26,222 nt of DNA, from contig DATJNL010000226.1 of NCBI GenBank assembly GCA_035508175.1, forward strand, positions 1 to 26,222. The letters run 5' to 3'. The position numbers were made by a program, and so were the translations under genes. This document shows, piece after piece, positions 9,142-24,663 of the stretch. Under the pieces are notes generated by a model, which was not told where the DNA came from, did no database searches, and saw only the letters and a program-made list of their open reading frames with translations. The DNA is from Myxococcales bacterium. GTDB taxonomy: Bacteria; Myxococcota; Myxococcia; Myxococcales; JAKAPL01. Within the stretch, counting starts at the first letter, position 1. Each line of letters starts with the position of its first letter.

Positions 9142-10640
9142 TTGAGCCCGCCGAATCTAGCAGAAGAGCGCTTCCGTGTCTGGCTCGCCGGCCTCGGCAA
9201 GCCACGGCTGACCGGCCTCTCGCGCGAGTACGCGCGCCTCGCGTTCGAGGGCGGCCTCTCGGTCCTGCGCGACGGGGCTCCGCAGGCCATTCCGCCCGCG
9301 CTCACAGCGGTGGTGGACGAGCCCGAGCGACAGCGTGCGCGCGCCGACTTGGCTCACCGGCTGCTGCGGGGGATCGTGCGCACCCTGCGCTACCACCTCG
9401 GCGGTATCGGCCGCTCCGAGGCCGATGCCTTGCTCGCCGGCCTGTCGCCCTGGGAGCGCGAGCTCTGCGATCTGACATGGCGCGAGGGCGAATACGTGGC
9501 CATCGCGCGCGCCGACCTCTTCACCGACTCGGCCGGCGTCGATCGGCCGCTGGAGATGAACGCCACCATTCCCGCCATGCAGGCCTACTCCGACGTTGCG
9601 GCCCAAGCCTTCCTGCGGGCCGTGGGAGGGCTGGCAGGACTCTCGCGCGAGCGCATCGACGCGCTCGCCCGCCGCAACGGCTCGAACTCCGACGACCTGC
9701 GGCGCTCGCTGCTCGCGCACCACGAGCGGCTGGGCGGCCGCGGCGACGGCGCCCGCATGGCGATGGTGGCGCGTGCCCAGGATCCGCAGAGCACCGAGCT
9801 CGCCGCGCTCTGCCGCTCCTTCAACGCCGCCGGCCTCGAAGCCCACCGGTGCACCCCCGACCAGATCGGGCTCGACGAGCAAGGCCGTGCGACGCTGCTC
9901 GGCAAGCCGCTGGATCTCATCTACCGGCACGTCTTCGCCCGTCGCATCGAGCCCGCGAGCGCCCTCGGGCGCATCGCGCGCGAGCCGGCTCGCCACCACC
10001 TGCTGAACCCGGTCAACTCGCAGCTCGAGATGAAATCGGTCTTTGCCGAGCTGTCAGCCGCCGCCGCCGAGCCAGCGCTCGCACACGCGATCGGTTTCGA
10101 GCCGGACGAGCTCGCGGCGGCGGCCACGATTCCCTGGTCGCGGCGCCTCGGCCGGGCGCCGACGCCCGACCCCTCCGGCGCCGCAGTCGCGAACCTGCTC
10201 GCGTTCGCCCAGGCGAACCCCAGGCGGCTGGTGCTCAAGCGGAGCTGGGGCTACGGCGGCACGAGCGTGCTGCTGGGCGACGAGATCGAGACCGAGTCCG
10301 GCCAGCAGCGCGCGCGGGACATCCTGGGCACGGCGGAGGCGCGCGAGGTGTCCTGGCAGGATCTCCTCGAGCACTGCGCGCAGCGCGGCGGCTACGTCGT
10401 GCAGGAGCGCGTGGAGCTCGCGACGCAGCGCCACCTGGTGGCCGGAGACGGCGAGCCCGTGTGGCTGGACTGGTACGTGGACGTCTCGGCGTACACGAAC
10501 CTCGGCGTGGAACCGCGACCGACGGGGGCCGTGCGGCGGGGATCGAAGAGCCGCATCGTCAACATCGTGGGCGGCGGGGGGCTGGTGCCGGTGATCCTGC
10601 GGCCGGTGATGGAAGAGCTGCTCGAAGCGGTGGGGGTGTA

Positions 10641-10641
<1 letters not shown>
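9142..10641 (+). CDS. Circularly permuted ATP-grasp family protein (COG2308-like); start uncertain
   Basis: Motifs 'LDLIYRHVFARRIEP', 'RLVLKRSWGYGGTSVLLGDE', 'GGYVVQERVEL' and C-terminal 'NIVGGGGLVPVIL' occur in the order seen in CP ATP-grasp type-2 proteins. In the track, the open frame extends upstream as antisense to the TPP gene. The first in-frame start after the TPP gene is TTG at 9142 and has no RBS, and the true start may lie downstream. Confidence 0.55.
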
Positions 10642-10733
<92 letters not shown>

Positions 10734-10748
10734 CCGCCTCTCAGCGCC

Positions 10749-11897
10749 TCAGCCGTCGTTCGCCCGCCAGAGGTACCAGCTCGCCACCGACCGCCACGGA
10801 CGCCACAGCCTCCCGCGCTTCTCGATCTCCGCCGGCTCCGGCAGCTTGCGCTTGCCGAAGGCCCGCTGGAAGCCCTTGCGCACGCCGTAGTCGGTCACGG
10901 GCAGCACGTCGGGGCGGCCGAGCCGGAAGATGAGCATCATCTCGACCGTCCAGCGCCCCACGCCCCTGACCACGGTGAGCCGCTCGACGATCTCCTCGTC
11001 GTCGAGCTGCGCGAGCGCCGCCGAGCCGGGTACGACGCCCGCCTGCGCGTGGCGCGCGAGGTCCTGGATGGCCGCGAGCTTGCTTCGCGACAAGCCGGCG
11101 CCGCGCAGGCGGCGAGCCGGCGTCGCGAGGACGTCCGCCGGCTCGGGAAAACGCTTACCGGGGAACAGCGCGAGCACGCGCCCGAGGATCGTGGCGGCGG
11201 CTTTGCCGTTTAGCTGCTGGTACACGATCGATTGCAGCAACGACTCGAAGGGGCTGCGGCGCGCTTGCAGGCGCAGCCGCAGCGGCCCCTTGGCTTCGAT
11301 CAGCTCGCCGAGCCGCGGATCGGCCTCGGCGAGCCGGCGCGTGGCCTCCAGTCCGTCGTACGGCAGGGGCTCGCCGCCGCGGAAGAGCGCGCCGCCCTCC
11401 ACTTCCAACAGCCGCGCCTTCCTGGCCAGGCCGCCGAAGCCCGACCAGCCGCCGGGGCGCCCCGAGGCGCCGACCACGCGGTGGCACGGAACGACGAGGG
11501 CAAAGGGATTGCGCGCCATCGCATGGCCGACCGCGCGCGCCGCACCGGGGGAACCGGCGAGCTCGGCCAGCTCGCCGTAGCTGCGCGTCTCCCCAGCCTC
11601 CAGCGCCCGTGCGGCCTCGTAGACGCGCCGGTGGAAGGCGGGGATCCCTTCCATGTCGAGCTTCACCGACCCGAGGTTCTGCGACCGGCCGCCGAGGTGT
11701 TCCCTTACGAGGCGAATCGCCTCGCGAACGGGCGCCGGCGGCTTCGCCTCCCGCGCCGCGTCCAGCCCACGAAGCAGTGCGGCGCGCGTCGCCTCGTCGC
11801 TGCCCGCGGAGAGCTGGATGCGCCGGACGCCCCGGCGACCCCAGGCGATCCCGGCGGGTCCCAGCGCCGTCGGAAAGAGGGTGTAGGATATTTCCAT
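10749..11897 (-). CDS. Bifunctional methylated-DNA-protein-cysteine methyltransferase (Ogt-like, N-terminal) fused to DNA-3-methyladenine glycosylase II (AlkA-like, C-terminal)
   Basis: N-terminal half carries the 'LVVPCHRVVGASG' active-site motif (PCHR). C-terminal half carries the HhH-GPD motif 'VRGVGRWTVEMMLIFRLGRPDVLPVTD'. Preferred start is the ATG at 11897 ('MEISYTLFPTALGPAGIAW', a typical Ogt N-terminus). The track TTG at 11963 would add 22 residues. Confidence 0.85.
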   Translation of the reverse strand: MEISYTLFPTALGPAGIAWGRRGVRRIQLSAGSDEATRAALLRGLDAAREAKPPAPVREAIRLVREHLGGRSQNLGSVKLDMEGIPAFHRRVYEAARALEAGETRSYGELAELAGSPGAARAVGHAMARNPFALVVPCHRVVGASGRPGGWSGFGGLARKARLLEVEGGALFRGGEPLPYDGLEATRRLAEADPRLGELIEAKGPLRLRLQARRSPFESLLQSIVYQQLNGKAAATILGRVLALFPGKRFPEPADVLATPARRLRGAGLSRSKLAAIQDLARHAQAGVVPGSAALAQLDDEEIVERLTVVRGVGRWTVEMMLIFRLGRPDVLPVTDYGVRKGFQRAFGKRKLPEPAEIEKRGRLWRPWRSVASWYLWRANDG

Positions 11898-12135
11898 AGA
11901 ATGTCGGTTCGTGGATTTCCCGAGGGGAGAATATACTCGCCGCGGAAGACGTCGATCTCGCAAACATTACGGACCTGAGCTTGCAATCCTTGTCGTCCAA
12001 CCCCGCGCCGTCGCTCGAGGGGGCCGCCGTTCGCCAGCGTTCTCGAAGAGTTCCAGCATCCTCGCCGACGGGCACGCGGTTTGCGTCGTCAGTCGGGGGG
12101 CCGCCTCGCCGCCGTTTCAACTCCCGGAGTCAATC

Positions 12136-13191
12136 ATGAAGAAGGTCATCGCGGTCTTCGCCGCCGCCCTGTGCGCCTGCGCCGCAGCCCCGGTGGTTCC
12201 CGAAGCACAGTTGACGCCGACGGGGAAGATGCCGTGGCCGGCCCAGACGCAGGACCCGCCTGACGCGCCCGCCAAGGTGGCCTACTCGGCGCTGGAGTGC
12301 GAGCGAGAGGCGCGGGCGGCCTTCGAGGGCGGCGACACGGAGTGGGGCTGGCGAGCGCTCGTGGCATGCACCGAGCGGGCCGACTTCATGGACCTCCGGC
12401 CGCTGCTGCGCCGCCCCTGGAAGGACGAGATCGGCCGCCGCGGCAGCGAGGGCGCGGAGATGCTCGGGCGCGTGCTCGTGCGCACCGACCTCGAGCTCGG
12501 CTACGATCTGCGCCGCATCCAGAACGCCGGCATCCCGCTGCTCGACATGAAGCAGGTTGCCGACGATCCCGCCCTCGCAGCCGGCCAGTTCGTGATCCTG
12601 CGCGCCACGGTCGGCTCTCGAAAGGCCTCGCCGAGCGGCGAGCTCGTGCAGCTGTTCGAGCAGAAGCAGGTGGGCTTCTACGAAGGCATGGGCGGCGGCG
12701 AGGAGGGCCAGGGCGGTGGCGGCGCGTTCAGCCCGGCGCAGGTTGCTCGCATGGGCGGCCCCGGAGCGCTGGCCTACGCCGGCACCGGCTACTTCGGCAT
12801 CCCCACGGTGGGCACCCCCCTCGGCCGCGGGATGCGCGGCGGCATGATCGGTCCCGGTCGCCCGTACAGCGGCTGGCCGTACGGCGCCCCCTACAACAAT
12901 GACTACCGCGCCATCGGGCCGGTCTACGGCGAGCAGAGCGAGGACACCGGTCGCGAGGCGGTGCTCGACCTCGACCACCTCGATCCGCGTCTCACCCACG
13001 GCCTCGAGATCGCGGTGCTGGCCCAGGTGGTCGGCGCGGGGCAATCGGACGACTGGTCCGACGTGTGCCGCTCGGGCGACGTGAGCGGCTCGATCACCTG
13101 CCGCAAGGAGCGCCTCCAGGGCCCGCCCACCGCGACGCTCAAGCCCGTTCGGATCTGGATCCTCGAGGCGAGCGACAGCGACGAGCCGTAG
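12136..13191 (+). CDS. Hypothetical lipoprotein with a Gly-rich central region
   Basis: ATG at 12136 with GGAG 6 nt upstream. Signal 'MKKVIAVFAAALCACAAAP'. The 75 codons upstream in the track are antisense artefact. High GC3. Confidence 0.65.
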   Translation: MKKVIAVFAAALCACAAAPVVPEAQLTPTGKMPWPAQTQDPPDAPAKVAYSALECEREARAAFEGGDTEWGWRALVACTERADFMDLRPLLRRPWKDEIGRRGSEGAEMLGRVLVRTDLELGYDLRRIQNAGIPLLDMKQVADDPALAAGQFVILRATVGSRKASPSGELVQLFEQKQVGFYEGMGGGEEGQGGGGAFSPAQVARMGGPGALAYAGTGYFGIPTVGTPLGRGMRGGMIGPGRPYSGWPYGAPYNNDYRAIGPVYGEQSEDTGREAVLDLDHLDPRLTHGLEIAVLAQVVGAGQSDDWSDVCRSGDVSGSITCRKERLQGPPTATLKPVRIWILEASDSDEP

Positions 13192-13197
13192 CCCCGG

Positions 13198-15981
13198 TCA
13201 GCCGCCGTCGGGTGCGCAGTAGCTGTCGCCCCCGCCCGGGCACGGCTTGCAGAACCAGGCGCCCGGGCTCGAGGGATCGCACAACAGGGTCGTCGAGTTG
13301 CAGAGCTGGCCGAGGACCGGCGAGGCGGTGCACTGGTTCTGGAGGTTGGGGTAGCAGGTCGAGGGCTCGACGCAGTTGGCCGTCGCACCATAGACGAGAG
13401 CGCAGTCCGTGAACGAGCTGCACGCCCCGCCCGAGCCGCCGGTCGTGCCGCCGCCCGTCTTGCACGTGTCCGAGCCACCCGAGCCGACCGACTCGCAGCC
13501 CTGCGCGCAGCTCTCGACCTTCGTGAGCGCGCCGTCCTTGCAGGAGTACAGCGCGCTCGCTGTGCCAGGGATGCCGTGGCCGCCGCAGTACAGGCCGTTC
13601 CCGCTGGGGCAGCCCACGGTCGGGGGCGGACAGACGTCGACGCCCGAGGCCACGGACTCCCAGCTCGTCCACGCCGCAGGGCCATCGTTCTCGTGCCGGC
13701 TCGCGACGAGCTCGTGCCCCGAGTTGATCGCGAACACCTCGACCTGCCCGTGCTCGCGCTTCCAGGCGAACGGCTCGGAAGCCATCGAATCGTCCGACCA
13801 GTGGGAGAACGTCCCGAACCGCCGCGTCGCGGGGTTCATCACCGCGTAGCTGATCCGCCCCGAGAGGCCGCGCACGAACACCTCGACGCGCGAATCGGAG
13901 GTCCCGTCGGGCAGCTTCTGGTCGTCGACGGCCGCCGCCGGCTCGCCCTGGATCTGGAAGCCCTCGTTGATCACCTCGAAACGGGCGAAGCCCGAGGCCG
14001 TCGAGCGCGTACCGTAGAGCTGTCCGTCCATGCCTCGCGCGAAGACGTGCAGCACTCCGGTGGCCGGCTCGCGCACCGCGGTAGGGCGCGACGAGAAGCG
14101 TCCGCCCATCGGCTCCCACCCCAGCCACCCGCCGCCGTTCGCCTGCAAACTGGTATCGTACCAGGCCTGACCGTCGTGGTCGGTGACGAAGATCTGGGCC
14201 CGGCCGTCCTTGGTCAGGATCGGCGCGGCGCCGGTCGCAAAGGGGGCGTGGCCCGCGGCGTCGATCTCCAGCCAGCCCTGGTTCGGCGACGTCGACCAGC
14301 GCCGGGTGGTGGGGTCGTAGTACCGGTGCCAGATGCCCCCCTGCTTGCCCAGACCAAAGACCTCGGGCCGGCCGTCCATCCATGGCCCGCTGTGATCGTC
14401 GTTCCAGCGCAAGGTGGACAGCTGGGTGACCAGCCCGCCGCCGAACGAGGACAGGCCGTGCCAGCCGTTGTCGAAGTAGCCCATCTGCGTCTCCGACTTA
14501 CCGGGCGCGAAGAGCTGCGCCTCGGGGGCGGCCACGAGGCTGATCACGGACGCGACCCCGCACTCCGCCGTGCCCGAGAAGGACTCGGGCGGGTGCCAGT
14601 TGTCTGAGTTGCCGTTCGTCCACGCGTGGTGAGCGCTCCCGGAGAGCTCGCGCGCGAATACCTCCACGTGGCCGTCGGTGGGCCAGTCGACGGCCGAGAG
14701 CGTGCCGTTGTTCTCCACCTGGTCGAGCGCGATGAGGCGGCTGATGCCGAGTAGCCCGGCGCTGCCGCTGCCCGTGGGGTTGAGTCCGCCCGCCGCCGGA
14801 CAGCCGGCGGGGCTGCAGGTCGATCCGGCGCTGCAGACCGTCCCCCCGCAGACGGGCAGGCAGGTGTCCTCGAAGCACACCGAACCGCCGCCGCAGTTGT
14901 AGGAGCTCCCGCAGTCCTGAGGAACGCACGCCCCCTCGACGCAGATCTGTCCGGACTGGCACTTCACGCCGTAGCAGGCGGCGTCGACGCAGGTATTCGT
15001 GGCCACGTCGCACACGTCACCCGCCACGCACTGGACGCCGTTCGGGCAGGTCGTCGGCTCGCAGCCCGAGCCCGTGCACAGCGTCCCGGACGGGCAGCCG
15101 CCGCCGTTGAGGCACGCGACGGGCTGGCAGCCGTCGTCGACACACACCTCGCCCGCGGCACAGGTCTGCGAGTCGCAACTCGTGGAAGGACAGCTCCCGT
15201 TGACGCACGCGGAGCCCACGGGACATTCTATCCCGGCGCACGCGAGCTCGGTGCAGGCGCCCTCGTAGCACACCTCTCCCGGCGAGCACTCGACCCCGCC
15301 GTCGCAGGCCGTCGGGTAGTCGACGCCGTAGGCGCACTGCTGCCCGGCGGGCGGCTGGACGCCCACGCAGCCCGCAAAGGTGCAGGCACCCTGGTCGCAG
15401 ACCTCCTGGGCGAGGCAGGCGCCGCCGTCGCAGCTCGTGGGATAACAGCTGCCGGCGGCGCAGAGCTGACCAGAGCCGCAGACGACCCCGACGCACACCG
15501 TGGACGTGCAGGTCCCCTGATCGCAGACGTCGCCGGCGACGCACGACTCGCCGTTGCACGCCGTGGGGTAGCAGCTGCCGTCGGCGCACGCCTGGCCGGC
15601 CGGGCAAACGACGCCGACGCAGGTGGCCTGGGTGCAGACATCCTGATCGCAGACCTCGCCCGGGCCGCACGGCACGCCGTTGCAGCTCGTCGAGGGGCAC
15701 TGCCCCTGCGCATCGCACAGCGTGCCGCTCGGGCACGTCACGCCGACGCAGGCGGAGCTCTCGCACTGGTCGTCGACGCAGACCTGGTTCGCGCCGCAGA
15801 TCATGCCGACGCAGGTGGTGGAGTAGCAGCTGCCAGAGAGGCAAACCTGATCGGCCCCACAACCGGGATCGCAAGAGGCGCCGCCGTTGCTGGCGCCCCC
15901 ATGCCCCGCCGTGGCGCCGCTGCAGCCGGCCAGCAGGCAAGACGCGGCGAGGAAAAACCAGGGGCTCCGGCGGATGCGCAT
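13198..15981 (-). CDS. Secreted lipoprotein: ~15 tandem Cys-rich repeats, 7-bladed beta-propeller-like domain and C-terminal Cys-rich module; non-catalytic paralogue of the gene at 17332..20154
   Basis: ATG at 15981 with GGAGG 6 nt upstream. Lipobox 'FLAASCLLAGCSG'. Repeats of the type 'TCVGVVCPAGQACADGSCYPTAC'. Propeller blades 'HVEVFARELSGSAHHAWT', 'RPEVFGLGKQGGIWHRYYD', 'LHVFARGMDGQLYGTRS', 'VEVFVRGLSGRISYAVM', 'VEVFAINSGHELVASRH'. C-terminal 'CPSGNGLYCGGHGIPGTASALYSCKDG...' matches its paralogue. Confidence 0.8.
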   Translation of the reverse strand: MRIRRSPWFFLAASCLLAGCSGATAGHGGASNGGASCDPGCGADQVCLSGSCYSTTCVGMICGANQVCVDDQCESSACVGVTCPSGTLCDAQGQCPSTSCNGVPCGPGEVCDQDVCTQATCVGVVCPAGQACADGSCYPTACNGESCVAGDVCDQGTCTSTVCVGVVCGSGQLCAAGSCYPTSCDGGACLAQEVCDQGACTFAGCVGVQPPAGQQCAYGVDYPTACDGGVECSPGEVCYEGACTELACAGIECPVGSACVNGSCPSTSCDSQTCAAGEVCVDDGCQPVACLNGGGCPSGTLCTGSGCEPTTCPNGVQCVAGDVCDVATNTCVDAACYGVKCQSGQICVEGACVPQDCGSSYNCGGGSVCFEDTCLPVCGGTVCSAGSTCSPAGCPAAGGLNPTGSGSAGLLGISRLIALDQVENNGTLSAVDWPTDGHVEVFARELSGSAHHAWTNGNSDNWHPPESFSGTAECGVASVISLVAAPEAQLFAPGKSETQMGYFDNGWHGLSSFGGGLVTQLSTLRWNDDHSGPWMDGRPEVFGLGKQGGIWHRYYDPTTRRWSTSPNQGWLEIDAAGHAPFATGAAPILTKDGRAQIFVTDHDGQAWYDTSLQANGGGWLGWEPMGGRFSSRPTAVREPATGVLHVFARGMDGQLYGTRSTASGFARFEVINEGFQIQGEPAAAVDDQKLPDGTSDSRVEVFVRGLSGRISYAVMNPATRRFGTFSHWSDDSMASEPFAWKREHGQVEVFAINSGHELVASRHENDGPAAWTSWESVASGVDVCPPPTVGCPSGNGLYCGGHGIPGTASALYSCKDGALTKVESCAQGCESVGSGGSDTCKTGGGTTGGSGGACSSFTDCALVYGATANCVEPSTCYPNLQNQCTASPVLGQLCNSTTLLCDPSSPGAWFCKPCPGGGDSYCAPDGG

Positions 15982-16038
15982 CGAGAACCTCCGCATGGGC
16001 GATTCTAGCATGGAAAGCCTGGGCGGGCCGCTCCGGCG

Positions 16039-17256
16039 TCAGTCGCACGTCAGACCTGCGTCAGCGTCGCAGACGGGTGCGCTGGCGGGGCAGTCCGAGT
16101 TGTAGGTGCAGCTCCCACACGTGTAACTCGAACTGTCGCAGCCAGGGTTGTCGGCCGGACAATCGGCCGCGGTGCGACACTCGCCGCAGAGCGTGCCCTG
16201 CCCCTGCGGGGAGACACAGAACGGCGTGCCGGCATCCAGCGCCGCACAGTCGCCATCGACCCCGCACTCGCCGCAGGAGCCGCCGACGCAGAAGGGACTG
16301 TCGGGATCGGTGCAGTCGCTAGCCGTGGCGCACTCGACGCAGAGGCCGGTCGACGTGTCGCACACGCCGGTCCCCGTATCCGGATTGGCGAGACAGTCGT
16401 TGTCGGAAGTGCACGGCGGCACGCAGAGGCCGTCCTGTCCCTGGTTGGGATCGCACACATAGCCGCTGCCCGCCGAGGCGCAGTCGCTCTTCTGTGAGCA
16501 GCCGCACACCGGCTGCCCCGGGCCGCCGAACTGCGCTCCGCCGCCGTCTGGAATGCAGATCGGCGTCGCCGACGGACAGCTCGCGTTGGTCGTGCAGCTG
16601 CAGGTCTGGTTCAGGCACGTCATGCCGCTCGGACAGTCGCTCGAGAGGTTGCACTGGCCGCACGTACCCTGCGAGCAGCCGGGCTGGCTGGCCGGGCAGT
16701 CGGAGGGTTTCAGGCAATCGACGCAGCTGTCGGAGACGGTGTCGCAGATCGCCCCGCCCCCGCCGGCACTGCAGTCGCTGTTGCTGAGGCAATCCACGCA
16801 AGCGCCGCTCGCGGGATCACAAACCTGATTCTGGCCGTTCGCCGAGCACGCCGAGGGGTTCGAGCTGCAACCGCCGGCGACGCAGTTGTCCTGCCCCGGC
16901 GCGCACGCCTCGCCCGTGCCGCACTCGCCCGCGACGCCCGGCACGCACTCGACGCACGTCCCGAAGTACTGATCCGCGAGCGTATCGCAGTGCGGCTCGC
17001 CCTGCCCCACGCAATCCGTGTCGGACGCGCACTGCACGCAGGTCCCGTTCGTCGCGCAGTACGGCGTCGGCGCGGTGCAGGCGGGGCTGCAGACACCGCC
17101 ATCCGCCAGGGGGACGTGGTTCGGCACTCCCGAATCGGCCGGCCCTGCGTCGACGCCGGCATCGCCGCCGTCCGGCTTGTTCTCGGTCACGTTCCCCTGG
17201 CACGCGGCCGCCAGCAGGAGGGGGAGCAGGAAGAGCTTGCGCATGGCATTTTCCAT
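16039..17256 (-). CDS. Lipoprotein composed of cysteine-rich 'DC' repeats (C-x2-C-x4-DC-x5-9-C)
   Basis: Signal 'MRKLFLLPLLLAAAC' (alternative start 17244). About 10 repeats, for example 'CVDCLSNSDCSAGGGGAIC', 'CVECATASDCTDPDSPFC', 'CGECRTAADCPADNPGC'. Lies between the two paralogues on the same strand with 57- and 75-bp spacers. Confidence 0.75.
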   Translation of the reverse strand: MENAMRKLFLLPLLLAAACQGNVTENKPDGGDAGVDAGPADSGVPNHVPLADGGVCSPACTAPTPYCATNGTCVQCASDTDCVGQGEPHCDTLADQYFGTCVECVPGVAGECGTGEACAPGQDNCVAGGCSSNPSACSANGQNQVCDPASGACVDCLSNSDCSAGGGGAICDTVSDSCVDCLKPSDCPASQPGCSQGTCGQCNLSSDCPSGMTCLNQTCSCTTNASCPSATPICIPDGGGAQFGGPGQPVCGCSQKSDCASAGSGYVCDPNQGQDGLCVPPCTSDNDCLANPDTGTGVCDTSTGLCVECATASDCTDPDSPFCVGGSCGECGVDGDCAALDAGTPFCVSPQGQGTLCGECRTAADCPADNPGCDSSSYTCGSCTYNSDCPASAPVCDADAGLTCD

Positions 17257-17331
17257 TCTGGGTGAGAGGTTCGCGGGGATCGAATGACGGCGCGCGGGCC
17301 TACCAGAGCGCCCGCGCGCCGCTTTTACCGT

Positions 17332-20154
17332 CTAGCCTCCGAACACGCAGCAGCTCACGCCGGCGGCCTGGCAGCCCGACGGGCAGGCGCCGCATACCAT
17401 GGTGCCTCCGGTCGCGGGGTTGCAGTCGCTGTTGCTCGTGCAGCTCTGGCCCACCAGCACGGCCGCCTCGGTGGTGCAGAGGCTGGCGCCGGTCTCGCCG
17501 GCGCAGATGAGAGCCGGTTGCTCGCAGACCTCGTCGCTCGCGCAATCGGCGTTGCTGCCGCAGCTGCCGCTGCCCGAGCTCTTGCAGGCGTCCTTGCCGC
17601 CGCTGCCGTTGTCCTGGCAGCCGTCCGAGCAAGCCTCGAGCTCCGTCACCTTGCCGCCGTCGCAGGAGTAGAGCGTCCCGGTCGTGCCCTTCACGCCGTG
17701 GCCGCCGCAGTACAGGCCGTTGCCGTTCGGGCACTCGGGCTCGACCTGGGGCGCCGGGCAGGGGTCGATGCCGGTGGCGATGCGCTCGAAGGCCTTCCAG
17801 CCCGTCTTCGAGTGGTAAGCGGCGCCGAGGTGGCCGTTGGTCGTCACCGCGAAGACCTCGACCCGGCCATCGGGCCGCTGCCAGGCGAAGGGGTCGGAGG
17901 CGAAGTCGTCCTCCGAGAGCCTCACGAAGCGGCCGAACTTGTCCGTCTTCGGATCCATCGTGGCGTAGCTCACCTTATCAGAGAGGCCGCGCACGAACAC
18001 CTCGACCTTGCCGTCGTCGACGGCGGCCGAAGGCTCGCCCGCGAAGGCGAAGGTGTCGTCGATGACCTCGAACTTCGAGAATCCGCTGTCGGTGGAGTGG
18101 GCGCCGTAGAGCTTGCCGTCCTGGCCCCGTGCGAAGATCCGCACCGTGCCGCCCGGGTCGCGCACCGCGACCGGCCGCGATCCCAGCGTGCCGCCGAGCG
18201 ACTTCCAGCCCTTCCAGCCCTCGCCCGTCGACCGGTCGCTCTCGTCGTAGAAGGCCTCGCCCTTGGCGTCCGTCGCGAAGAGCAGCGCGTCGCCGGAGCG
18301 GTTCAGGATGGGACTCGCGCCGGTGGCAAGGTCGCCGCCGAGGCTGTCCCAGCTCGACCAGCGCTTGGTCTCCGGATCGTAGTACTTGTGGTAGATGTGG
18401 TGGTCGCCGGCCGCGAGACCGAACACCTCGGTCCGGCCGTCGTTCCAGCCGCCGCTCTTCTCGTCGTTCCAGCGCAGCGTGGACACCTGCTCGAGGTTCT
18501 CACCGCCGAAGCTCGAGAGGTCCTTCCAGCCCTTGTCGTAGAACGACGACTTCGTGTCGCCGTCGTGGCCGGCCGAATCGAAGACCTCGGCGTGCTCGTA
18601 GCCGGCGAAGCTGACGACCGAGGCCACGCCGCAAGCCGCGGCCGAGCCCGTCAGGTCCTCCGCCGCGTGCCACTTGTCGGTCGCGCCGTCCGTCCACACG
18701 TGCGTCGCGCGGCCGGAGTCGGTGCGAGCGAAGACCTCGATGTGCCCGTCCGCCCAGGTGACCGCGGTCAGACCGCCGTTGCTCTCGACCTGGTCGATCG
18801 GGCTGGCGAGAGTCTCGCAGGTGGTGGTCGACGGGACGTAGCCCTTCTTGCGGATGGGGAGGAAGATCTTGTCGACGTCGGCGTAGGCGCCCGCCTCGTC
18901 CCAGTATTCGTAGATGCTGTGGGGCCGGATGGCCGCGGTATAGCCGTAGTCGAACTCCTCGATCGCGCAGTACTCGGTGTGGTCCCGGTTCAGCCAGCCG
19001 CCCCACAGCTCGACGTGGCCCGTGCCCGCCTGCCAGTCACCGGGAAAGTTGATTGCGTCGCCCGGGGTGAGCTGGCCCCAGTTGATGCGCACGGACAGAT
19101 CGTTGTTCCAGGGGCCGCCGGCCAGCGAGTACGTGGTGTCGCTCGTGCCGAGCTGCCACACGTACGAGACGAAGCCCGAGCAGTCCTGCCGGTAGCCGTC
19201 GGTGTAGCTGTCCTGCGAGTACCAGACCCGGCCGACCCAGTTGAAGGCGCGGTCGAGCATGTCCTTGGCCGAACTCGGCGCGATGGCGCGGATGGCGCTC
19301 TCGTCGCAGGCGGAGAGCACGCCTTCGTCGCCGACGCCCGCATTGTTGCAGACCTGCGTGAAGGCCGGCGGCTCGGAGGGGCCGGTGCTGCCCCCGCTCG
19401 AGCCCGAAGAGCCGGAGGAACCCGACTCGTCGGCGAACCCCTGCAGCGACTTCAGATCGCCGATGTAATGATCGTGATCGAGGCCGGAGGTGTTGTACTG
19501 GAAGATGGTGAAGTGGTCCCACGGGCCGTCCGGCATCTGCGGGCAGGTGTTGCCGGGGTTCGAGATCCAAAGCGGGTACTTCGCGAACTCGTCCGGCACG
19601 CGGGTGCCGAAGAAGTCGGGGTAGGTGTAGATGAGCGGCGTGCGGCCCGTGGCCTGCTCCACGCGGTCCAGGAAGATCTTGGCGCGGGCGAAGGCCGTGC
19701 TCCAGTCGACGCCGCTCGTGATCTCCCAGTCCAGGGCCGGCGGAAGATCTCCCTTCGGCGCCGAGCCGATGATCTTGAGGAACAGATCGGCGGCCTTGTT
19801 CGGGTCACTGGATGGGTCGAAGAAGTGATAGGCGCCGTGAATGAGGCCGAGGTCGGCAGCCTTCTTCCGGTAGCCGTCGTAGGTGTCGTCGGTGAAGTAG
19901 TCGCCCTGGCTCGCCTTCAGGTAGACGAAGCGGACGCCGTTGGCCTTGGAGGCCGCCAGGTCGAAGTTCGCGCCGTTGTTGTTCGAGATGTCGATACCGT
20001 ACGTCGTCGCCCCGCTCTCGCAGACCTGGAGCGCCTCCTGCTCGGCATCGGAGAGCGGCTCGGCGCTCGTGGGAGCGAGCCCGCCGCAGGCCTCGAAGAG
20101 CCCGAGGGAGAGAGAAGCGAGGGTGATGGCGATCCAGCGAGAGTCGGCGTTCAT
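17332..20154 (-). CDS. Multi-domain secreted peptidoglycan hydrolase: GH25 muramidase + NlpC/P60-like endopeptidase + 7-bladed beta-propeller + C-terminal Cys-rich module
   Basis: ATG at 20154 with GGAGG 6 nt upstream. GH25: 'GIDISNNNGANFDLAASKANGVRFVYLKASQGDYFTDDTYDGYRKKAADLGLIHGAYHFF'. NlpC/P60 Cys-His: 'YRQDCSGFVSYVW...GDAINFPG...GHVELW'. Ser/Gly linker 'SGSSGSSGSSGGSTG'. Propeller blades 'HIEVFARTDSGRATHVWTDG', 'TVRIFARGQDGKLYGAHS', 'KVEVFVRGLSDKVSYATM', 'RVEVFAVTTNGHLGAAYHS'. Cys-rich C-terminus. Confidence 0.85.
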   Translation of the reverse strand: MNADSRWIAITLASLSLGLFEACGGLAPTSAEPLSDAEQEALQVCESGATTYGIDISNNNGANFDLAASKANGVRFVYLKASQGDYFTDDTYDGYRKKAADLGLIHGAYHFFDPSSDPNKAADLFLKIIGSAPKGDLPPALDWEITSGVDWSTAFARAKIFLDRVEQATGRTPLIYTYPDFFGTRVPDEFAKYPLWISNPGNTCPQMPDGPWDHFTIFQYNTSGLDHDHYIGDLKSLQGFADESGSSGSSGSSGGSTGPSEPPAFTQVCNNAGVGDEGVLSACDESAIRAIAPSSAKDMLDRAFNWVGRVWYSQDSYTDGYRQDCSGFVSYVWQLGTSDTTYSLAGGPWNNDLSVRINWGQLTPGDAINFPGDWQAGTGHVELWGGWLNRDHTEYCAIEEFDYGYTAAIRPHSIYEYWDEAGAYADVDKIFLPIRKKGYVPSTTTCETLASPIDQVESNGGLTAVTWADGHIEVFARTDSGRATHVWTDGATDKWHAAEDLTGSAAACGVASVVSFAGYEHAEVFDSAGHDGDTKSSFYDKGWKDLSSFGGENLEQVSTLRWNDEKSGGWNDGRTEVFGLAAGDHHIYHKYYDPETKRWSSWDSLGGDLATGASPILNRSGDALLFATDAKGEAFYDESDRSTGEGWKGWKSLGGTLGSRPVAVRDPGGTVRIFARGQDGKLYGAHSTDSGFSKFEVIDDTFAFAGEPSAAVDDGKVEVFVRGLSDKVSYATMDPKTDKFGRFVRLSEDDFASDPFAWQRPDGRVEVFAVTTNGHLGAAYHSKTGWKAFERIATGIDPCPAPQVEPECPNGNGLYCGGHGVKGTTGTLYSCDGGKVTELEACSDGCQDNGSGGKDACKSSGSGSCGSNADCASDEVCEQPALICAGETGASLCTTEAAVLVGQSCTSNSDCNPATGGTMVCGACPSGCQAAGVSCCVFGG

Positions 20155-20239
20155 GGTCGGCCTCCGGTTGCTGGTTAGCAAAGCAAGCGGGAGGCCAAGG
20201 CGTCGGAAGACGAACGCGCTGAAATTACATGTGAATTCT

Positions 20240-20258
20240 ATGTCAAACGAATTGACAT
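20240..20258. promoter_or_regulatory. 19-bp perfect inverted repeat ATGTCAA-acgaa-TTGACAT within an AT-rich island (20219..20262), 86 bp upstream of the lysin gene start; candidate operator or promoter element
   Basis: Seen directly. Local AT content is far above the ~70% GC background. It contains a TTGACA hexamer. Adjacent self-palindromes ACATGT and GAATTC are present. Confidence 0.4.
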
Positions 20259-20322
20259 GGAGTGGGGGACGGCCGCTCCACCTCGCGGCTGGACGGCCAG
20301 GGCTCCATTCGAGGCCGCCTGT

Positions 20323-20637
20323 TCAGAACTTGATCTGGAGGCGCGCGACGGGCCGGCCGTGGACCAGGTGTTCGTCCACGATCTCGGGCACATCGGCCAG
20401 CGTGACATGGCCATACCACACGTCGTCGGGATACACGACGATCGAGACGCCATGCTCGCAGGCGTCCAGGCAGCCTGCCGCGTTGGCCCGGCACGTCCCC
20501 TCGAGCCCCCGCTGCTTGATGGCCGCCTTCAACGCGTCCCGGACCGCTTCGGACCCCTTCTCGGAGCAGCAGCCCTTGGGATGCCCGGGCGGTCGCACGT
20601 TGGTGCAAACGAACAAATGTCTCTGGAAGGGCGGCAC
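20323..20637 (-). CDS. Thioredoxin-like [2Fe-2S] ferredoxin
   Basis: Cys pattern C11-x11-C23 ... C56-x3-C60, in 'HLFVCTNVRPPGHPKGCC...CRANAAGCLDACEHG'. GTG start. Confidence 0.7.
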   Translation of the reverse strand: MPPFQRHLFVCTNVRPPGHPKGCCSEKGSEAVRDALKAAIKQRGLEGTCRANAAGCLDACEHGVSIVVYPDDVWYGHVTLADVPEIVDEHLVHGRPVARLQIKF

Positions 20638-20838
20638 GTCCGGCGCATTCTAACCGCCGAACGGCCGGGCCGTCGATGGAAGCTCGGCTCGTCGCGTATT
20701 CCAGATGCGATCCAGAATACCGACAGGGCCTACCCTTCCGTTCGAGAGCGGTTCGACTTTCGTCGTCGCCACCTCTGCAGGTGGTCTATCCGTTCTCTTC
20801 TCGACGGCCGGTCAACTCAGAAAGTAGCCACGCCCCTC

Positions 20839-23574
20839 TCAGGAGCAACCGGAGGTGGAGCCGCAGTTGGCGCACTTGTAGCAGGCGCCGCTGCGCACCA
20901 TGATGCTGCCGCACGTGTGGCAGGGCGGCGCGTCGCTCTCGGTCTGGATGGCGAAGTTCCCCGAGGCCGCCGTGCGAACCGACGGGCTCTCCGGCGCCGG
21001 GGCGGGCAACGCCTTGCGGACCGCCTCCTTCAGCTCGCCGCCGTCCCCGCCCTCCTCGGTGATCTCCTGCTGCTGCGGCAGGAACTTGAGGGACAGCCAG
21101 CGGAAGACGTAGTCGACGATGGACTTCGCGATGGGGATCTGGGGGTTGCCGGTGAAGCCGGACGGCTCGAAGCGCGTGTGGCTGAACTTGTCGACCAGCA
21201 CCTTGAGCGGCACGCCGTACTGCAAGGAGAGCGAGATGGCCGTGGCGAAGCTGTCCATGAGGCCCGACACCACCGAGCCCTCCTTCGCCATCACGCAGAA
21301 CAGCTCACCCGGGCTGCCGTCCTCGTACATGCCGACCGTGAGATAGCCCTCGTGGCCGCCGATCGAGAACTTGTGGGTGATGGCCCGGCGCTCCTCGGGG
21401 AGCCGGCGGCGCAGCGGGCGCGCTTCGCCCGTCACCACCGGCTGGGTCTTGCTCGTGTTGAGCGGCTGGCTGCGCTTGCAGCCGTCGCGGTAGACGGCCA
21501 CCGCCTTGAGCCCCATCTTCCAGGACTCGAGGTACGCGCTCTCGATGTCCTCGACCGTGGCCTGCTGCGGCAGGTTCACGGTCTTCGAGATGGCGCCCGA
21601 CAGGAACGGCTGCACCGCGCCCATCATCTTGATGTGGCCCATGTAGTGGATGCTGCGGCTGCCCGAGGCCGGCTTGAAGGCGCAGTCGAAGACCGAGAGG
21701 TGCTCGGCCTTGAGATCCGGCGCGCCCTCGATGGTCTCGTGCTCGTCCAGGTACGCGAGGATGCGGCCGATGGCCTCCTGGCCGTAGCCCAGCCGCTCCA
21801 GCGCCCCCGGCACCGTGCCGTTGACGATCTTGAGCATGCCGCCGCCCACGAGCTTCTTGTACTTGATGAGCGCGATGTCCGGCTCGATGCCGGTGGTGTC
21901 GCAGTCCATCATGAAGCCGATGGTGCCGGTGGGGGCGAGCACGGTGACCTGCGAGTTCCGGTAGCCGTGGGCCTTGCCGAGCGAGAGCGCGTTGCGCCAC
22001 GCCTGCCGCGCCGCCTGCAGCAGGTCCGGCGGACACACTTCGTCCGGGATGCGCTCGGCGTAGCCGCCGTGCTTCGCGATGACGCGCAGCATCGGCTCCC
22101 GGTTCACCGGATAGCCCTCGAACGGCCCCACCTGCTCGGCGATGCGCGCGCTCATGGCGTAGGCCTCGCCGCACATGAGCGCCGTGATGGCCGCCGCGTA
22201 GGCGCGCCCCGCGTCGCTGTCGTAGGCGAGCCCGCGCGACATGAGCAGCGCGCCCAGGTTCGCGTACCCGAGCCCGAGCGGCCGGAACTTGTGGCTGTTG
22301 TCGCCGATCTTCTCGGTGGGGTAGCGCGCGTTGTCGACGATGATCTCCTGCGCCAGGATGAACACGTCGACGGCCTTCTCGAAGGCCTCGACGTCGACCT
22401 CGCCGTCGAGCGTCCGGAAGGTCATGAGGTTCAGCGACGCCAGGTTGCAGGCCGTGTCGTCGAGGAACATGTACTCGCTGCAGGGGTTCGACGCGTTGAT
22501 GCGCGCGGTGGCGGAGCAGGTGTGCCAGTCGTTCACCGTGGTGTCGAACTGCATCCCCGGATCGCCGCAGGCGTGCGCCGCCTCGGCGATCTCGCGGAAC
22601 AGCGCGCGCGCCTTGTAGGTGTCCATCACGCGGTCGTCGGTGATGGCGCGCGTCTGCCACTCCTTGTCGTCGACCACCGCCTGCATGAAGGAGTCGGTCG
22701 CCCGCACGGAGTTGTTCGAGTTCTGGAAGAACACCGAGGAGTACGCCGCGCCGTTGAAGCTCGAGTCGTAGCCGGCCTCGATGAGCGCCCAGGCCTTCTT
22801 CTCCTCGTCGGCCTTGCAGTGGATGAACTCGAGGATGTCCGGGTGGTCGGCGTTCAGGATGACCATCTTGGCGGCCCGCCGCGTCTTGCCGCCGCTCTTG
22901 ATGACGCCCGCGAAGGCGTCGAAGCCCTTCATGAACGAGACCGGCCCCGAGGCGTCGCCGCCGCCGGCGAGGAGCTCGCGCGACGAGCGGATCACCGAGA
23001 GGTTGGTGCCCGTGCCGGAGCCGTACTTGAAGAGCATGCCCTCGGTGTGCGCGAGGCGCAGGATGCTGTCCATCGAGTCCTGCACGCTGTTGATGAAGCA
23101 GGCGGAGCACTGCGGCTCCTTCTCGACGCCCACGTTGAACCACACCGGGCTGTTGAAACAGCCCTTCTGGCGAAGCAGGAGGTGGGTGAGCTCGGCGTGG
23201 AAGCTGGTCGCGTCGGTCTCGCTCGCGAAGTAGCTGCCCTTGCGCCCCCAGTCGGTGATCGTGTCGACCACGCGGGAGATGAGGTGCTTCACGCTGCGCT
23301 CGCGCTGCGGCGTGCCGAGCGTGCCGCGGAAGTACTTCGAGGCCACCACGTTCGTGGCGAGCGCCGACCAGCTCTTCGGGATCTCGACGTCTTTCTGCTC
23401 GAAGACGACCTTGCCGTCCTCGCCGGTGATCACCGCGGTGCGGTTCTCCCAGGCCACCTCGTCGTAGGGGTTGACGCCGGGGGTGGTGAAGTACCGGGGG
23501 ACCGCGAGGCCCACGCCGCTGCGCTTCTTCGAAGGCCGCTTCGACCCCTGCACGTCTCTGACCTGCCGCTCCAT
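20839..23574 (-). CDS. nrdJ: Class II (adenosylcobalamin-dependent) ribonucleotide reductase
   Basis: ATG at 23574 with GGAGG 5 nt upstream. N-terminus 'VPRYFTTPGVNPYDEVAWENRTAVI'. Active-site region 'NPCSEYMFLDDTACNLASLNL'. C-terminal zinc ribbon 'CHTCGSIMVRSGACYKCANCGSTSGC'. Confidence 0.95.
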   Translation of the reverse strand: MERQVRDVQGSKRPSKKRSGVGLAVPRYFTTPGVNPYDEVAWENRTAVITGEDGKVVFEQKDVEIPKSWSALATNVVASKYFRGTLGTPQRERSVKHLISRVVDTITDWGRKGSYFASETDATSFHAELTHLLLRQKGCFNSPVWFNVGVEKEPQCSACFINSVQDSMDSILRLAHTEGMLFKYGSGTGTNLSVIRSSRELLAGGGDASGPVSFMKGFDAFAGVIKSGGKTRRAAKMVILNADHPDILEFIHCKADEEKKAWALIEAGYDSSFNGAAYSSVFFQNSNNSVRATDSFMQAVVDDKEWQTRAITDDRVMDTYKARALFREIAEAAHACGDPGMQFDTTVNDWHTCSATARINASNPCSEYMFLDDTACNLASLNLMTFRTLDGEVDVEAFEKAVDVFILAQEIIVDNARYPTEKIGDNSHKFRPLGLGYANLGALLMSRGLAYDSDAGRAYAAAITALMCGEAYAMSARIAEQVGPFEGYPVNREPMLRVIAKHGGYAERIPDEVCPPDLLQAARQAWRNALSLGKAHGYRNSQVTVLAPTGTIGFMMDCDTTGIEPDIALIKYKKLVGGGMLKIVNGTVPGALERLGYGQEAIGRILAYLDEHETIEGAPDLKAEHLSVFDCAFKPASGSRSIHYMGHIKMMGAVQPFLSGAISKTVNLPQQATVEDIESAYLESWKMGLKAVAVYRDGCKRSQPLNTSKTQPVVTGEARPLRRRLPEERRAITHKFSIGGHEGYLTVGMYEDGSPGELFCVMAKEGSVVSGLMDSFATAISLSLQYGVPLKVLVDKFSHTRFEPSGFTGNPQIPIAKSIVDYVFRWLSLKFLPQQQEITEEGGDGGELKEAVRKALPAPAPESPSVRTAASGNFAIQTESDAPPCHTCGSIMVRSGACYKCANCGSTSGCS

Positions 23575-23707
23575 GACGACCTCCTGCTACCGGGCGGTGG
23601 GCGACGAGCCCACGCCGACCAGGCGCGCGTGTGAGTGATTGGTGTCCCCGTCCCACTTCATCGCAAGGAGGGTCAGCCTCTCACAGGCCTCTGACAACGC
23701 GTCGGCG

Positions 23708-24001
23708 CTAGGCAGATTTCCTGAACCGCGACGGGAAGTTGGGTGGGAAGGCCTGGTCCGGGTGCAGCTTTTTCGCACGCTCCAGCAGGTCGCCTTCGGC
23801 CTCGGGCCGGCCGGGGTCGGGGATGCAGCAGTCGACCGGACAGACGGCCGCGCAGGCCTCCCGCTCGTTGAAGCCCACGCACTCGGTGCACAGCCCGGGG
23901 TCGATGACGAAGATCTCCTCCCCCTGCGAGATCGCACCATTCGGGCACTCGGGCTCGCAAGCGCCGCAATTGATGCACTCTTCCGTGATGAGCGTGGCCA
24001 T
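23708..24001 (-). CDS. 2[4Fe-4S] ferredoxin
   Basis: 'CINCGACEPECP' and 'CTECVGFNEREACAAVCPVDCC' cluster motifs. 97 aa. Confidence 0.85.
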   Translation of the reverse strand: MATLITEECINCGACEPECPNGAISQGEEIFVIDPGLCTECVGFNEREACAAVCPVDCCIPDPGRPEAEGDLLERAKKLHPDQAFPPNFPSRFRKSA

Positions 24002-24008
24002 TGGGGCG

Positions 24009-24024
24009 ACGCTCTATATAACGT
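24009..24024. promoter_or_regulatory. AT-rich 16-mer ACGCTCTATATAACGT immediately upstream of the ferredoxin start; candidate -10 (near-leaderless) or NrdR-box-like element
   Basis: TATATA lies 14-19 nt upstream of the ATG in an otherwise ~70% GC region. Outer ACG...CGT arms are palindromic. It matches about 11/16 positions of the NrdR-box consensus as I recall it. Confidence 0.3.
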
Positions 24025-24041
24025 TTCGCGCGGCAGGCAAG

Positions 24042-24245
24042 CTACTGCAGCTCGTTCACCTCCGCCCGCGCCAGCTCGCCGTCGAGGCGCTCCCTGAAGA
24101 GCGCCAGGATGCGCTCCTGCTCCTTGATGCGCCGGCGCATCGGCTCGCTCTCGGTCTTGTAGATCTCCTCCCGCAGCTCCGGGAGCGTCCACTCCAGCAG
24201 CCGCAGCAGCGCCGCCGCCTCTTCCAGGTTCACCTCGATCTTCAT
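24042..24245 (-). CDS. Small hypothetical helical protein (67 aa)
   Basis: ATG start 15 nt after the KGG gene stop and 41 nt before the ferredoxin start. Acidic/basic helical composition 'MKIEVNLEEAAALLRLLEWTLPELREEIYKTE...'. No clear RBS. Confidence 0.4.
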   Translation of the reverse strand: MKIEVNLEEAAALLRLLEWTLPELREEIYKTESEPMRRRIKEQERILALFRERLDGELARAEVNELQ

Positions 24246-24260
24246 GGGAGCGCCCGCCCG

Positions 24261-24554
24261 TCAGTGCTTGACGGCGCCCTTCCCCTCGTCGATGAGCTCG
24301 CGGACGCGCTGCCCGCCCTTGTGCCCGATCTGGGAATAGAACTCGGGACCCCGCGTGCGCGAGACCGTCTCGCCGCCCAGCCGCCCCAGCTCGCGGTAGC
24401 CATCGGGCCCGAGTTGCAGCTTGCGCGCCTCGCCGCCCTTCTCGCCGCCCTTCTTGCCGATGGTCGAGTAGAACTCCCGCCCGCGCTCCCGGGCCACCTT
24501 CTCGCCACCCAGCCGGCCGGCCTCCTGGACGGTCATGCCTTTCTTCTCGTTCAC
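24261..24554 (-). CDS. KGG-repeat general stress protein (YciG / Con-10 family)
   Basis: Repeats 'GRLGGEKVARERGREFYSTIGKKGGE' and 'GRLGGETVSRTRGPEFYSQIGHKGGQ'. GTG start at 24554 with AGGAGG 9 nt upstream (the internal ATG at 24536 is the alternative). The upstream 54 codons in the track are artefact. Confidence 0.7.
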   Translation of the reverse strand: MNEKKGMTVQEAGRLGGEKVARERGREFYSTIGKKGGEKGGEARKLQLGPDGYRELGRLGGETVSRTRGPEFYSQIGHKGGQRVRELIDEGKGAVKH

Positions 24555-24663
24555 GATCCTGAACCTCCTTCGGTCACTCCCCCGCCCTGGAGGACCCTGG
24601 TTGGAAGTTAGGCATCGTCGGGGAGCGAACGAAGCGGGCGCCATGCCCTGCGTGCTCGCGAGG

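Follow-up and report, generated by a model that had tools for sequence, protein, structure and literature searches.

Can a single exported protein of a myxobacterium attack both polymers of the bacterial cell wall, and what would hold such an enzyme on its target? This question is raised by a gene on contig DATJNL010000226.1, part of a metagenome-assembled genome (MAG) recorded as Myxococcales bacterium, in line with the myxobacterium-like genome recognised in a preliminary description of this DNA. The window analysed here is the entire 26,222-bp MAG contig. The gene product, which we call the lysin, combines a GH25 muramidase head, a divergent NlpC/P60-fold cysteine peptidase, a seven-bladed beta-propeller of the PLL lectin family and a Cys-rich tail, the propeller and tail together forming a C-terminal cassette that is shared with other proteins. 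In our judgement the lysin is likely to be an exported, probably lipid-anchored, bifunctional peptidoglycan hydrolase whose lectin-type cassette serves targeting or retention. We infer the activity of both enzymes, the binding of sugars and its specificity, the anchoring as a lipoprotein, and a use against other bacteria in predation or competition; a predation role is plausible.

The lysin gene

The lysin had been described as a single protein of 940 amino acids (aa), and it stands as such both in the DNA and in the public record. Its open reading frame (ORF) of 940 codons lies on the minus strand, with the ATG at 20154 and the stop codon at 17332-17334. An alternative in-frame TTG nine codons 5′ of this ATG would give 949 codons; the ATG is favoured because a GGAGG Shine-Dalgarno motif sits 6 nucleotides (nt) before it (20165..20161). 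The GC content at third codon positions (GC3) is 0.92, which is typical of genes in this 70% GC contig and argues for a real coding sequence. Public databases list the exact protein as HUB07416.1 (‘GH25 family lysozyme [Myxococcales bacterium]’, from a MAG); it is the sole member of its 90%-identity cluster and is annotated for its GH25 part only. A contig in ENA (L001), 99.8% identical to window positions 17158-26222, carries the lysin gene too. All motifs quoted in the preliminary description (GIDIS, FVYLKASQG, GAYHF, the SGSSGSSGSSGGS linker, DCSGFV and GHVELW) were found in the sequence, so that its account of the gene holds for the ORF and the motifs, with corrections for the minus strand, the probable lipoprotein Cys23 and the propeller, which falls in a named family.

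A GH25 muramidase head

The N-terminal enzyme is matched by Pfam PF01183 (Glyco_hydro_25) over residues 54-224 and 175 of the 180 model positions (E=7.2e-34, 118.1 bits against a cutoff of 27), and the scan recovers the GH25 module proposed earlier together with its Asp / Asp-x-Glu residues. Matches in the PDB include the C. perfringens autolysin (4kru/4krt, E=1e-22), the fungal muramidases 6zm8 and 2x8r (~1e-15) and cellosyl (1jfx, E=4e-14). The catalytic roles of the acidic GH25 motifs are established from cellosyl and Cpl-1. In the lysin, catalytic Asp55 lies in GIDIS, aligned to GIDVS/GFDIS of solved enzymes (4kru, 6zm8, 2x8r, 6zmv), Asp142-Trp-Glu144 lies in ALDWE, aligned to ALDIE/LDIE, and Asp226 lies in GLDHD, aligned to GGDSD/GGDSN. 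Because these motifs align with those of solved enzymes, the domain looks catalytically competent. Compared with Streptomyces cellosyl (1jfx), Acp (4krt) and the fungal enzymes (2x8r, 6zm8), the lysin has the full-length Pfam GH25 domain and the same Asp / Asp-x-Glu / Asp motifs, but at ~30-35% identity and with another lytic domain and a lectin propeller on the same chain.

A predicted second lytic domain, of the NlpC/P60 superfamily

A Gly/Ser-rich linker (ESGSSGSSGSSGGST) leads from the muramidase to the middle module, and the SGSSGSSGSSGGS motif quoted earlier corresponds to its residues 244-256. The linker of the orthologue P0006 is Pro-rich, so the linker sequence is not conserved.

The middle module is a cysteine peptidase of the NlpC/P60 superfamily (MEROPS C40, clan CA), in a subfamily that is under-detected by the Pfam model PF00877. 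This placement rests on relatives that hit PF00877, on deep profile matches and on an invariant Cys-His pair, and it bears out the earlier identification of an NlpC/P60-like module, though the Pfam model alone misses it. An NCBIfam scan of the module returned nothing, and the best match in a single-sequence PDB scan had E=0.5. A word-index search yielded only 5 relatives, wrongly suggesting a rare domain; an exhaustive profile search gave 2,795 representatives at E<=1e-3, with 1,680 at E<=1e-10. PF00877 is matched by 22 of 113 relatives (best E=8.6e-7), and since close relatives do match, we regard the cutoff missed by the lysin as a limit of the model and not as a structural criterion. Other domains on the 113 relatives are Peptidase_M23, Amidase_3, SpoIID, phage lysozyme, GH25 and LGFP, and many relatives carry the name ‘NlpC/P60 family protein’ at NCBI or JGI. 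A 38-sequence profile of the module detected E. coli Spr/MepS (2k1g, E=2.1e-5) and CwlO (7.4e-5) in the PDB, and all 23 PDB matches at E<=1 were NlpC/P60 enzymes, aligned on D-C-S-G-F and the His.

Cys325 and His380 are present in every one of 122 sequences and are aligned with the corresponding Cys and His of Spr and CwlO; Trp306, Tyr312, Arg322, Asp324, Gly365-Asp366 and Trp387 are invariant as well. For structure prediction, a 6-sequence alignment gave a pLDDT of 36.5 with AlphaFold, and the 122-sequence alignment was used instead. The resulting model predicts the papain-like alpha+beta fold of NlpC/P60 enzymes, in which Cys325 opens a helix (58-65) and His380 opens a strand (113-120, model numbering). 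The third triad residue is probably Glu399 (E in 103 of the 122 sequences) or Glu400 (E or Q in 115 of the 122), both on the next strand of the model. We consider it highly improbable that the module serves as an inactive scaffold, or works on another substrate as a papain-like amidase or acyltransferase, which would leave a single-activity GH25 lysozyme; the Cys-His pair is retained throughout the alignment, and the features that set the module apart from known enzymes are weighed below.

Relative to characterised NlpC/P60 endopeptidases (MepS/Spr, CwlO/LytE, C. glutamicum Cg1735 and M. tuberculosis RipA), the module of the lysin has ~20% identity, below the Pfam threshold, and its third residue is probably Glu and not His. 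Its subfamily carries the signature W-x5-Y ... Y-R-x-D-C-S-G-F-V-S-x-x-W ... G-D ... H-V-x-L-F-x-x-W ... Y-E-E ... P-x-R. Members of the subfamily also occur in eukaryotic datasets (P0086, P0163, P0170 and P0197, at E ~1e-38 to 1e-41), namely EukProt transcriptomes and the ‘Eukaryota sp. TZLM1-RC’ and ‘GEM-RC1’ genomes, and could reflect horizontal transfer or contamination.

A PLL-family propeller as the candidate targeting part

The propeller had been taken for a seven-bladed domain outside the known wall-binding families. Seven repeats were indeed delimited (residues 466-797, 36-53 aa each, alignable with PLL2 blades), but the domain belongs to a named family, the PLL/PHL lectins. A phmmer search of the propeller against the PDB gave PLL2 (6rfz, E=1.8e-37) and PHL (5mxe, E=1.9e-30), and a profile of eight cassette proteins (A7) matched only the 8 PLL-family lectin sequences there, at E=4.8e-61 to 1.3e-43. 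The precomputed Pfam label of the propeller is PF26607 (Beta-prop_PLL), and the related DUF346 is classed by UniLectin as ‘PLL-like, PropLec7A’ (PMC7778903). The earlier suggestion of a lectin-type domain is thus backed by strong homology to PLL and PHL.

PHL and PLL hold fucose and O-methyl sugars between blades with two Trp residues, the first of W-H-x-W and the second of W-x-x-W, and a second, polar site uses R-x-E (PMC5584973, PMC6943638). The W-x-x-W motif of the lysin is intact in blade 3 (W-S-S-W) and blade 4 (W-K-G-W) and replaced in blades 5-7 (F-S-K-F, F-G-R-F and W-K-A-F); W-H-x-W has become Y-H-K-Y or F-Y-D-E, and R-x-E is retained in blades 3 and 7. Judged from these motifs, the canonical aromatic pockets are predicted to be retained mainly in blades 3-5. 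All 8 cassette proteins compared keep W599/W602, W647/W650, Y683 and F692/F695, and several have Trp at positions 588 and 635. Because the aromatic pocket residues are invariant in these proteins, two or three PLL-type pockets are probably functional.

The Photorhabdus lectins (5c9o, 5mxe, 6rfz, 6t96) and the lysin propeller share sequence homology, seven ~48-aa blades, the D-G-R-x-E-V-F strand motif and, in blades 3-4 of the lysin, the W-x-x-W aromatic pairs. They differ in that identity is only ~30%, that several pocket Trp residues are replaced by Tyr or Phe, and that the propeller spans 346 residues compared with 369-381 in PLL chains. Moreover, the characterised lectins are stand-alone soluble proteins of an insect pathogen, whereas the propeller of the lysin is a domain within an enzyme. 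No description of hydrolase-PLL-propeller fusions was found in full-text literature searches.

The Cys-rich tail and export signals

The last 143 residues of the lysin (798-940) contain 19 Cys and comprise two modules. The first, which we call LYCGG, is a 50-aa unit with the consensus CPxGxGLYCGGHGVxGxxGTLYxCxxGxLTxxxxCxxGCxxxGxGGxDxC, present in 15 copies in 11 proteins, with tandem copies in P0006, P0280 (residues 336-501) and P0282 (residues 703-804). The unit occurs singly after the propeller, or as tandem arrays in otherwise unrelated Cys-rich proteins. It has no Pfam match and no PDB match at E<=10, and is a putative small disulfide domain that is as yet undescribed. The second Cys-rich module (tail-2), likewise without a Pfam or PDB match, shares 38-60% identity with P0256-P0262 and with a neighbouring gene.

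At the other end of the protein, a signal peptide precedes Cys23, which is kept in the orthologue P0006 (LFAAC), and canonical lipoboxes occur in the cassette relatives P0256 (AVSC), P0258 (LAAC) and P0260 (LAGC). From these signals, the lysin is probably a lipoprotein. The lysin has no match to the MYXO-CTERM model (TIGR03901); the GH25-propeller relative P0264 does match it, with 23.9 bits against a cutoff of 20, and this sorting domain implies surface display of that protein.

The cassette recurs behind several lytic heads

Among the fetched proteins, GH25 is joined to the propeller in nine cases, NlpC/P60 to the propeller in four and GH25 to NlpC/P60 in one, and in seven the propeller, LYCGG and tail-2 stand behind other heads. 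These heads include an Rv2525c-like glycoside hydrolase (GH) in P0256 and P0257 and Cys-rich repeats in P0260; P0284 carries Amidase_2 with a propeller. An RlpA/DPBB-like identity considered for the N-terminus of P0258 was not supported by Pfam. Of the ten closest propeller loci in JGI metagenomes, eight are GH25-propeller fusions and one encodes an Rv2525c-GH-propeller-LYCGG-tail protein.

The full stack of GH25, NlpC/P60 and propeller was found in three loci only. Apart from the window, these are P0006, identical to locus L002 (a ‘Proteobacteria bacterium’ MAG, 64-65% identity), and L054, an 83-kb ENA contig with frame shifts in all three genes of the module described below, which are probably assembly indels. 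P0006 was the sole full-stack match in an alignment-based rescan of 185,579 species genomes, which used GH25 motifs only and could miss full-stack genes without those exact motifs. A scan of species genomes with the single lysin protein as query found nothing, and neither did a metagenome scan with the NlpC/P60-propeller junction. The architecture had been called unusual, which holds for the full stack but not for its parts, since GH25-propeller and NlpC/P60-propeller fusions recur.

The two heads also occur side by side. Locus L061, from a metagenome, encodes a 620-aa NlpC/P60-variant protein with a propeller (9449..11311), followed directly by a 694-aa GH25 protein with a propeller (11360..13444), and the C-terminal 438 residues of the two, spanning propeller, linker and a Cys-containing membrane anchor, are 98% identical. 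Together, the fused lysin and these twin genes therefore place both heads on the same targeting module, either fused or separate. The near-identity of the twins may itself reflect a very recent duplication or gene conversion, or an artefact of repeat assembly. Similar GH25-propeller and NlpC/P60-propeller proteins from Myxococcota-type MAGs (for example P0263-P0266, P0276 and the L061 twins) have the same heads and the same propeller family, some being annotated ‘lysozyme’ or ‘MYXO-CTERM domain-containing protein’. They carry a single catalytic head and a MYXO-CTERM-type anchor, whereas the lysin carries both heads and ends in LYCGG and the Cys-rich tail.

A conserved three-gene module

The lysin gene is followed on the same strand by two further genes (Table 1). 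The first encodes a Cys-rich lipoprotein with weak TraA / Myxo_Cys_RPT similarity, and the second a lipoprotein in which Cys-rich repeats precede the cassette, with 47% identity to lysin residues 453-927 (E=3e-138); P0260, from a Myxococcales MAG, is its orthologue. In L002, an orthologue of the 405-aa lipoprotein (12855..14195, 47% identity, E=7e-82) follows the lysin orthologue, after which the contig ends; the genes upstream differ from those of the window lysin. L054 (12164..16040) has all three genes in the same order. The module of lysin, Cys-rich lipoprotein and Cys-repeat-propeller paralogue is thus conserved. A promoter/terminator scan found only one promoter-like site, upstream of a 104-aa ORF; no terminator was called between any of the three genes, and their co-transcription is plausible.

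Table 1 Features of the lysin and its partner genes, with window coordinates.
Feature	Residues	Coordinates	Strand	Basis
Signal peptide, before Cys23; probable lipobox L-F-E-A-C	1-22	20089..20154	-	Sequence reading
GH25 muramidase domain	46-243	19426..20019	-	Pfam PF01183, PDB matches, motif alignment
Gly/Ser-rich interdomain linker	244-258	19381..19425	-	Sequence reading
Divergent NlpC/P60-fold cysteine peptidase	284-446	18817..19305	-	Catalytic pair Cys325 + His380
Seven-bladed PLL-family (PropLec7A-type) beta-propeller	452-797	17764..18801	-	phmmer, profile, repeat alignment
‘LYCGG’ module, 50 aa, 6 Cys	808-857	17584..17733	-	Repeat comparison
Second Cys-rich C-terminal module	865-940	17335..17562	-	Shared with relatives
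405-aa Cys-rich lipoprotein, lipobox LAAAC, downstream partner gene		16039..17256	-	75 nt downstream of lysin, same strand
937-aa lipoprotein, Cys-rich repeats, then propeller + LYCGG + tail-2		13198..16011	-	Homology to lysin

This gene order bears on what the cassette binds. The enzymes could act on foreign cells while propeller and tail hold them at the surface of the producer, in its exopolysaccharide matrix or on its vesicles, or dock them to the two co-encoded Cys-rich proteins, which would keep a costly lytic enzyme near the swarm. Such tethering fits a conserved module whose third protein has the same cassette on a Cys-repeat stalk and whose second is a Cys-rich lipoprotein, as well as the MYXO-CTERM tethers of relatives, and PLL-site pockets can also hold non-sugar ligands, for example Met side chains (PMC6943638). 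However, the homology of the propeller is to soluble lectins that bind foreign glycans, and the non-catalytic C-terminal domain of endolysins and autolysins usually binds the substrate wall (PMC3314691); we therefore regard retention on the producer as possible but doubtful, and continue to prefer a cassette that binds the substrate cell.

Two other readings considered for genes of this neighbourhood were rejected. The upstream 104-aa ORF does not qualify as an immunity gene, as it has a thioredoxin-like [2Fe-2S] ferredoxin look (weak Suc_Fer-like match) and is not conserved beside the L002 orthologue, and a prophage endolysin origin of the lysin is contradicted by its chromosomal housekeeping flanks and its own signal peptide.

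The 168-nt spacer upstream of the lysin contains an AT-rich island (20215..20265, minus strand) with a perfect TTGACA (20246..20241); the -10-like hexamer that scores best, TGTAAT, lies just 11 nt from it. Because of this short spacing, the consensus scan called no promoter there; the lysin may have its own non-canonical promoter.

Elsewhere in the window, an ORF of at least 1060 aa (3..3185, minus strand), which runs off the left end, contains Major Vault Protein domains (MVP_shoulder E=2.3e-25, Vault_3 E=2.4e-9, Vault repeat E=5e-6), and a vault-protein-like gene is unusual for a Myxococcales contig. In a 404-aa ORF (10749..11963, minus strand), a methylguanine-methyltransferase DNA-binding domain (E=8e-29) is joined to an HhH-GPD glycosylase domain (E=2e-14), and the ORF looks like an Ada/AlkA-type DNA-repair fusion.

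Discussion

Taken together, the domains of the lysin suggest a protein that would attack both polymers of the sacculus at once. The GH25 domain would cut the glycan strand between N-acetylmuramic acid and N-acetylglucosamine (MurNAc-beta-1,4-GlcNAc), the divergent NlpC/P60 cysteine peptidase would cut the stem peptide or the cross-link, and the combined attack would be expected to collapse the wall faster. The C-terminal cassette of propeller, LYCGG and Cys-rich tail has no catalytic motif and would act as a targeting or retention part. Most likely, its propeller makes multivalent contact with a surface glycan through aromatic pockets between blades 3-5 and would keep the enzymes on the substrate cell, akin to the cell-wall-binding domain of a phage endolysin, and the disulfide-rich tail may stabilise the protein or tether it outside the cytoplasm. 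Wall-lytic enzymes that myxobacteria secrete or release on vesicles contribute to prey lysis (PMC10849154), and with this background the outward-facing features of the lysin fit a use against other bacteria.

Several observations weigh against this interpretation. The middle module scores below threshold with Pfam NLPC_P60 (14.6 bits, E=0.033; cutoff 23), and Foldseek with the peptidase model gave no match at E<=1e-3 (best 1.4e-3, TM ~0.45), so the peptidase is a remote variant, and its sequence does not indicate which bond it would cut; its third catalytic residue may be either Glu399 or Glu400. In the propeller, the NCBIfam beta_propeller_lectin model finds no match, no blade has the full W-H-x-W / W-x-x-W pair as Trp, some of these positions being taken by Tyr or Phe, and blades 1, 2, 6 and 7 have diverged. 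The lipobox has Glu at -2, atypical for the pattern [LVI][ASTVI][GAS]C, which is why lipoprotein status is only probable. Finally, nothing in the window ties the lysin gene to a secretion or predation machine, and its flanking genes are chromosomal housekeeping genes (ribonucleotide reductase, a thiamine pyrophosphate enzyme and DNA repair).

Such flanks would suit a self-directed autolysin, a periplasm-facing lipoprotein acting on the producer's own peptidoglycan in growth, in division or in the loss of the wall as myxospores form. The probable lipoprotein signal would put the enzyme beside this wall, and the best structural matches of the peptidase, MepS, CwlO, LytE and RipA, are housekeeping autolysins. 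Against this, known housekeeping autolysins have neither a multivalent lectin propeller nor a tail with 19 Cys; the cassette moves between at least four lytic heads and in relatives is paired with MYXO-CTERM surface-sorting signals, which points outward; and an architecture known from three loci is too rare for a conserved core function. We thus consider an autolysin unlikely and favour a lysin directed at other cells.

The closest analogy in overall design is with mycobacteriophage Lysin A, in which an N-terminal peptidase and a central GH25, GH19 or amidase domain are followed by a C-terminal wall-binding domain (PMC3314691). Lysin A-type endolysins resemble the lysin in combining peptide-cutting and glycan-cutting GH25 domains on one chain ahead of a non-catalytic C-terminal targeting domain, and modules are extensively shuffled between members of both families. 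In contrast to Lysin A, the lysin is encoded by a chromosomal gene of a Gram-negative, predator-type bacterium, is exported by a signal peptide or lipobox and not by a holin, and has GH25 first, then the peptidase. Its targeting part is a 340-aa lectin propeller with Cys-rich modules, and not LysM, SH3b, PGBD, LGFP or CW_7.

The enzyme domains of the lysin are thus familiar and the protein was already deposited; what is new is the hidden second lytic domain, the lectin propeller as candidate targeting part, and the fused and split versions of the enzyme pair together with the three-gene module. The second lytic domain represents an NlpC/P60 subfamily of ~2,800 representatives that is mostly missed by the Pfam model. 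The PLL propeller family has been known only as stand-alone lectins of an insect pathogen, and its repeated C-terminal pairing with wall hydrolases points, on genomic evidence, to a new type of targeting domain. The fused/split pair and the three-gene module provide testable hypotheses for how myxobacteria aim their lytic enzymes. As one tentative proposal, which we hold with reserve, propeller, LYCGG and Cys-rich modules might constitute an unrecognised glycan-reading cassette that Myxococcota shuffle among lytic heads (GH25, NlpC/P60, Rv2525c-like GH and Amidase_2), and the three-gene module might be a surface-displayed prey-recognition and lysis unit, with the middle gene serving as tether or self-protection. 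If the propeller does bind defined glycans of bacterial surfaces, engineered lysins would gain from it a new multivalent binding module, and it would give a handle on the determinants of prey range in bacterial predation.

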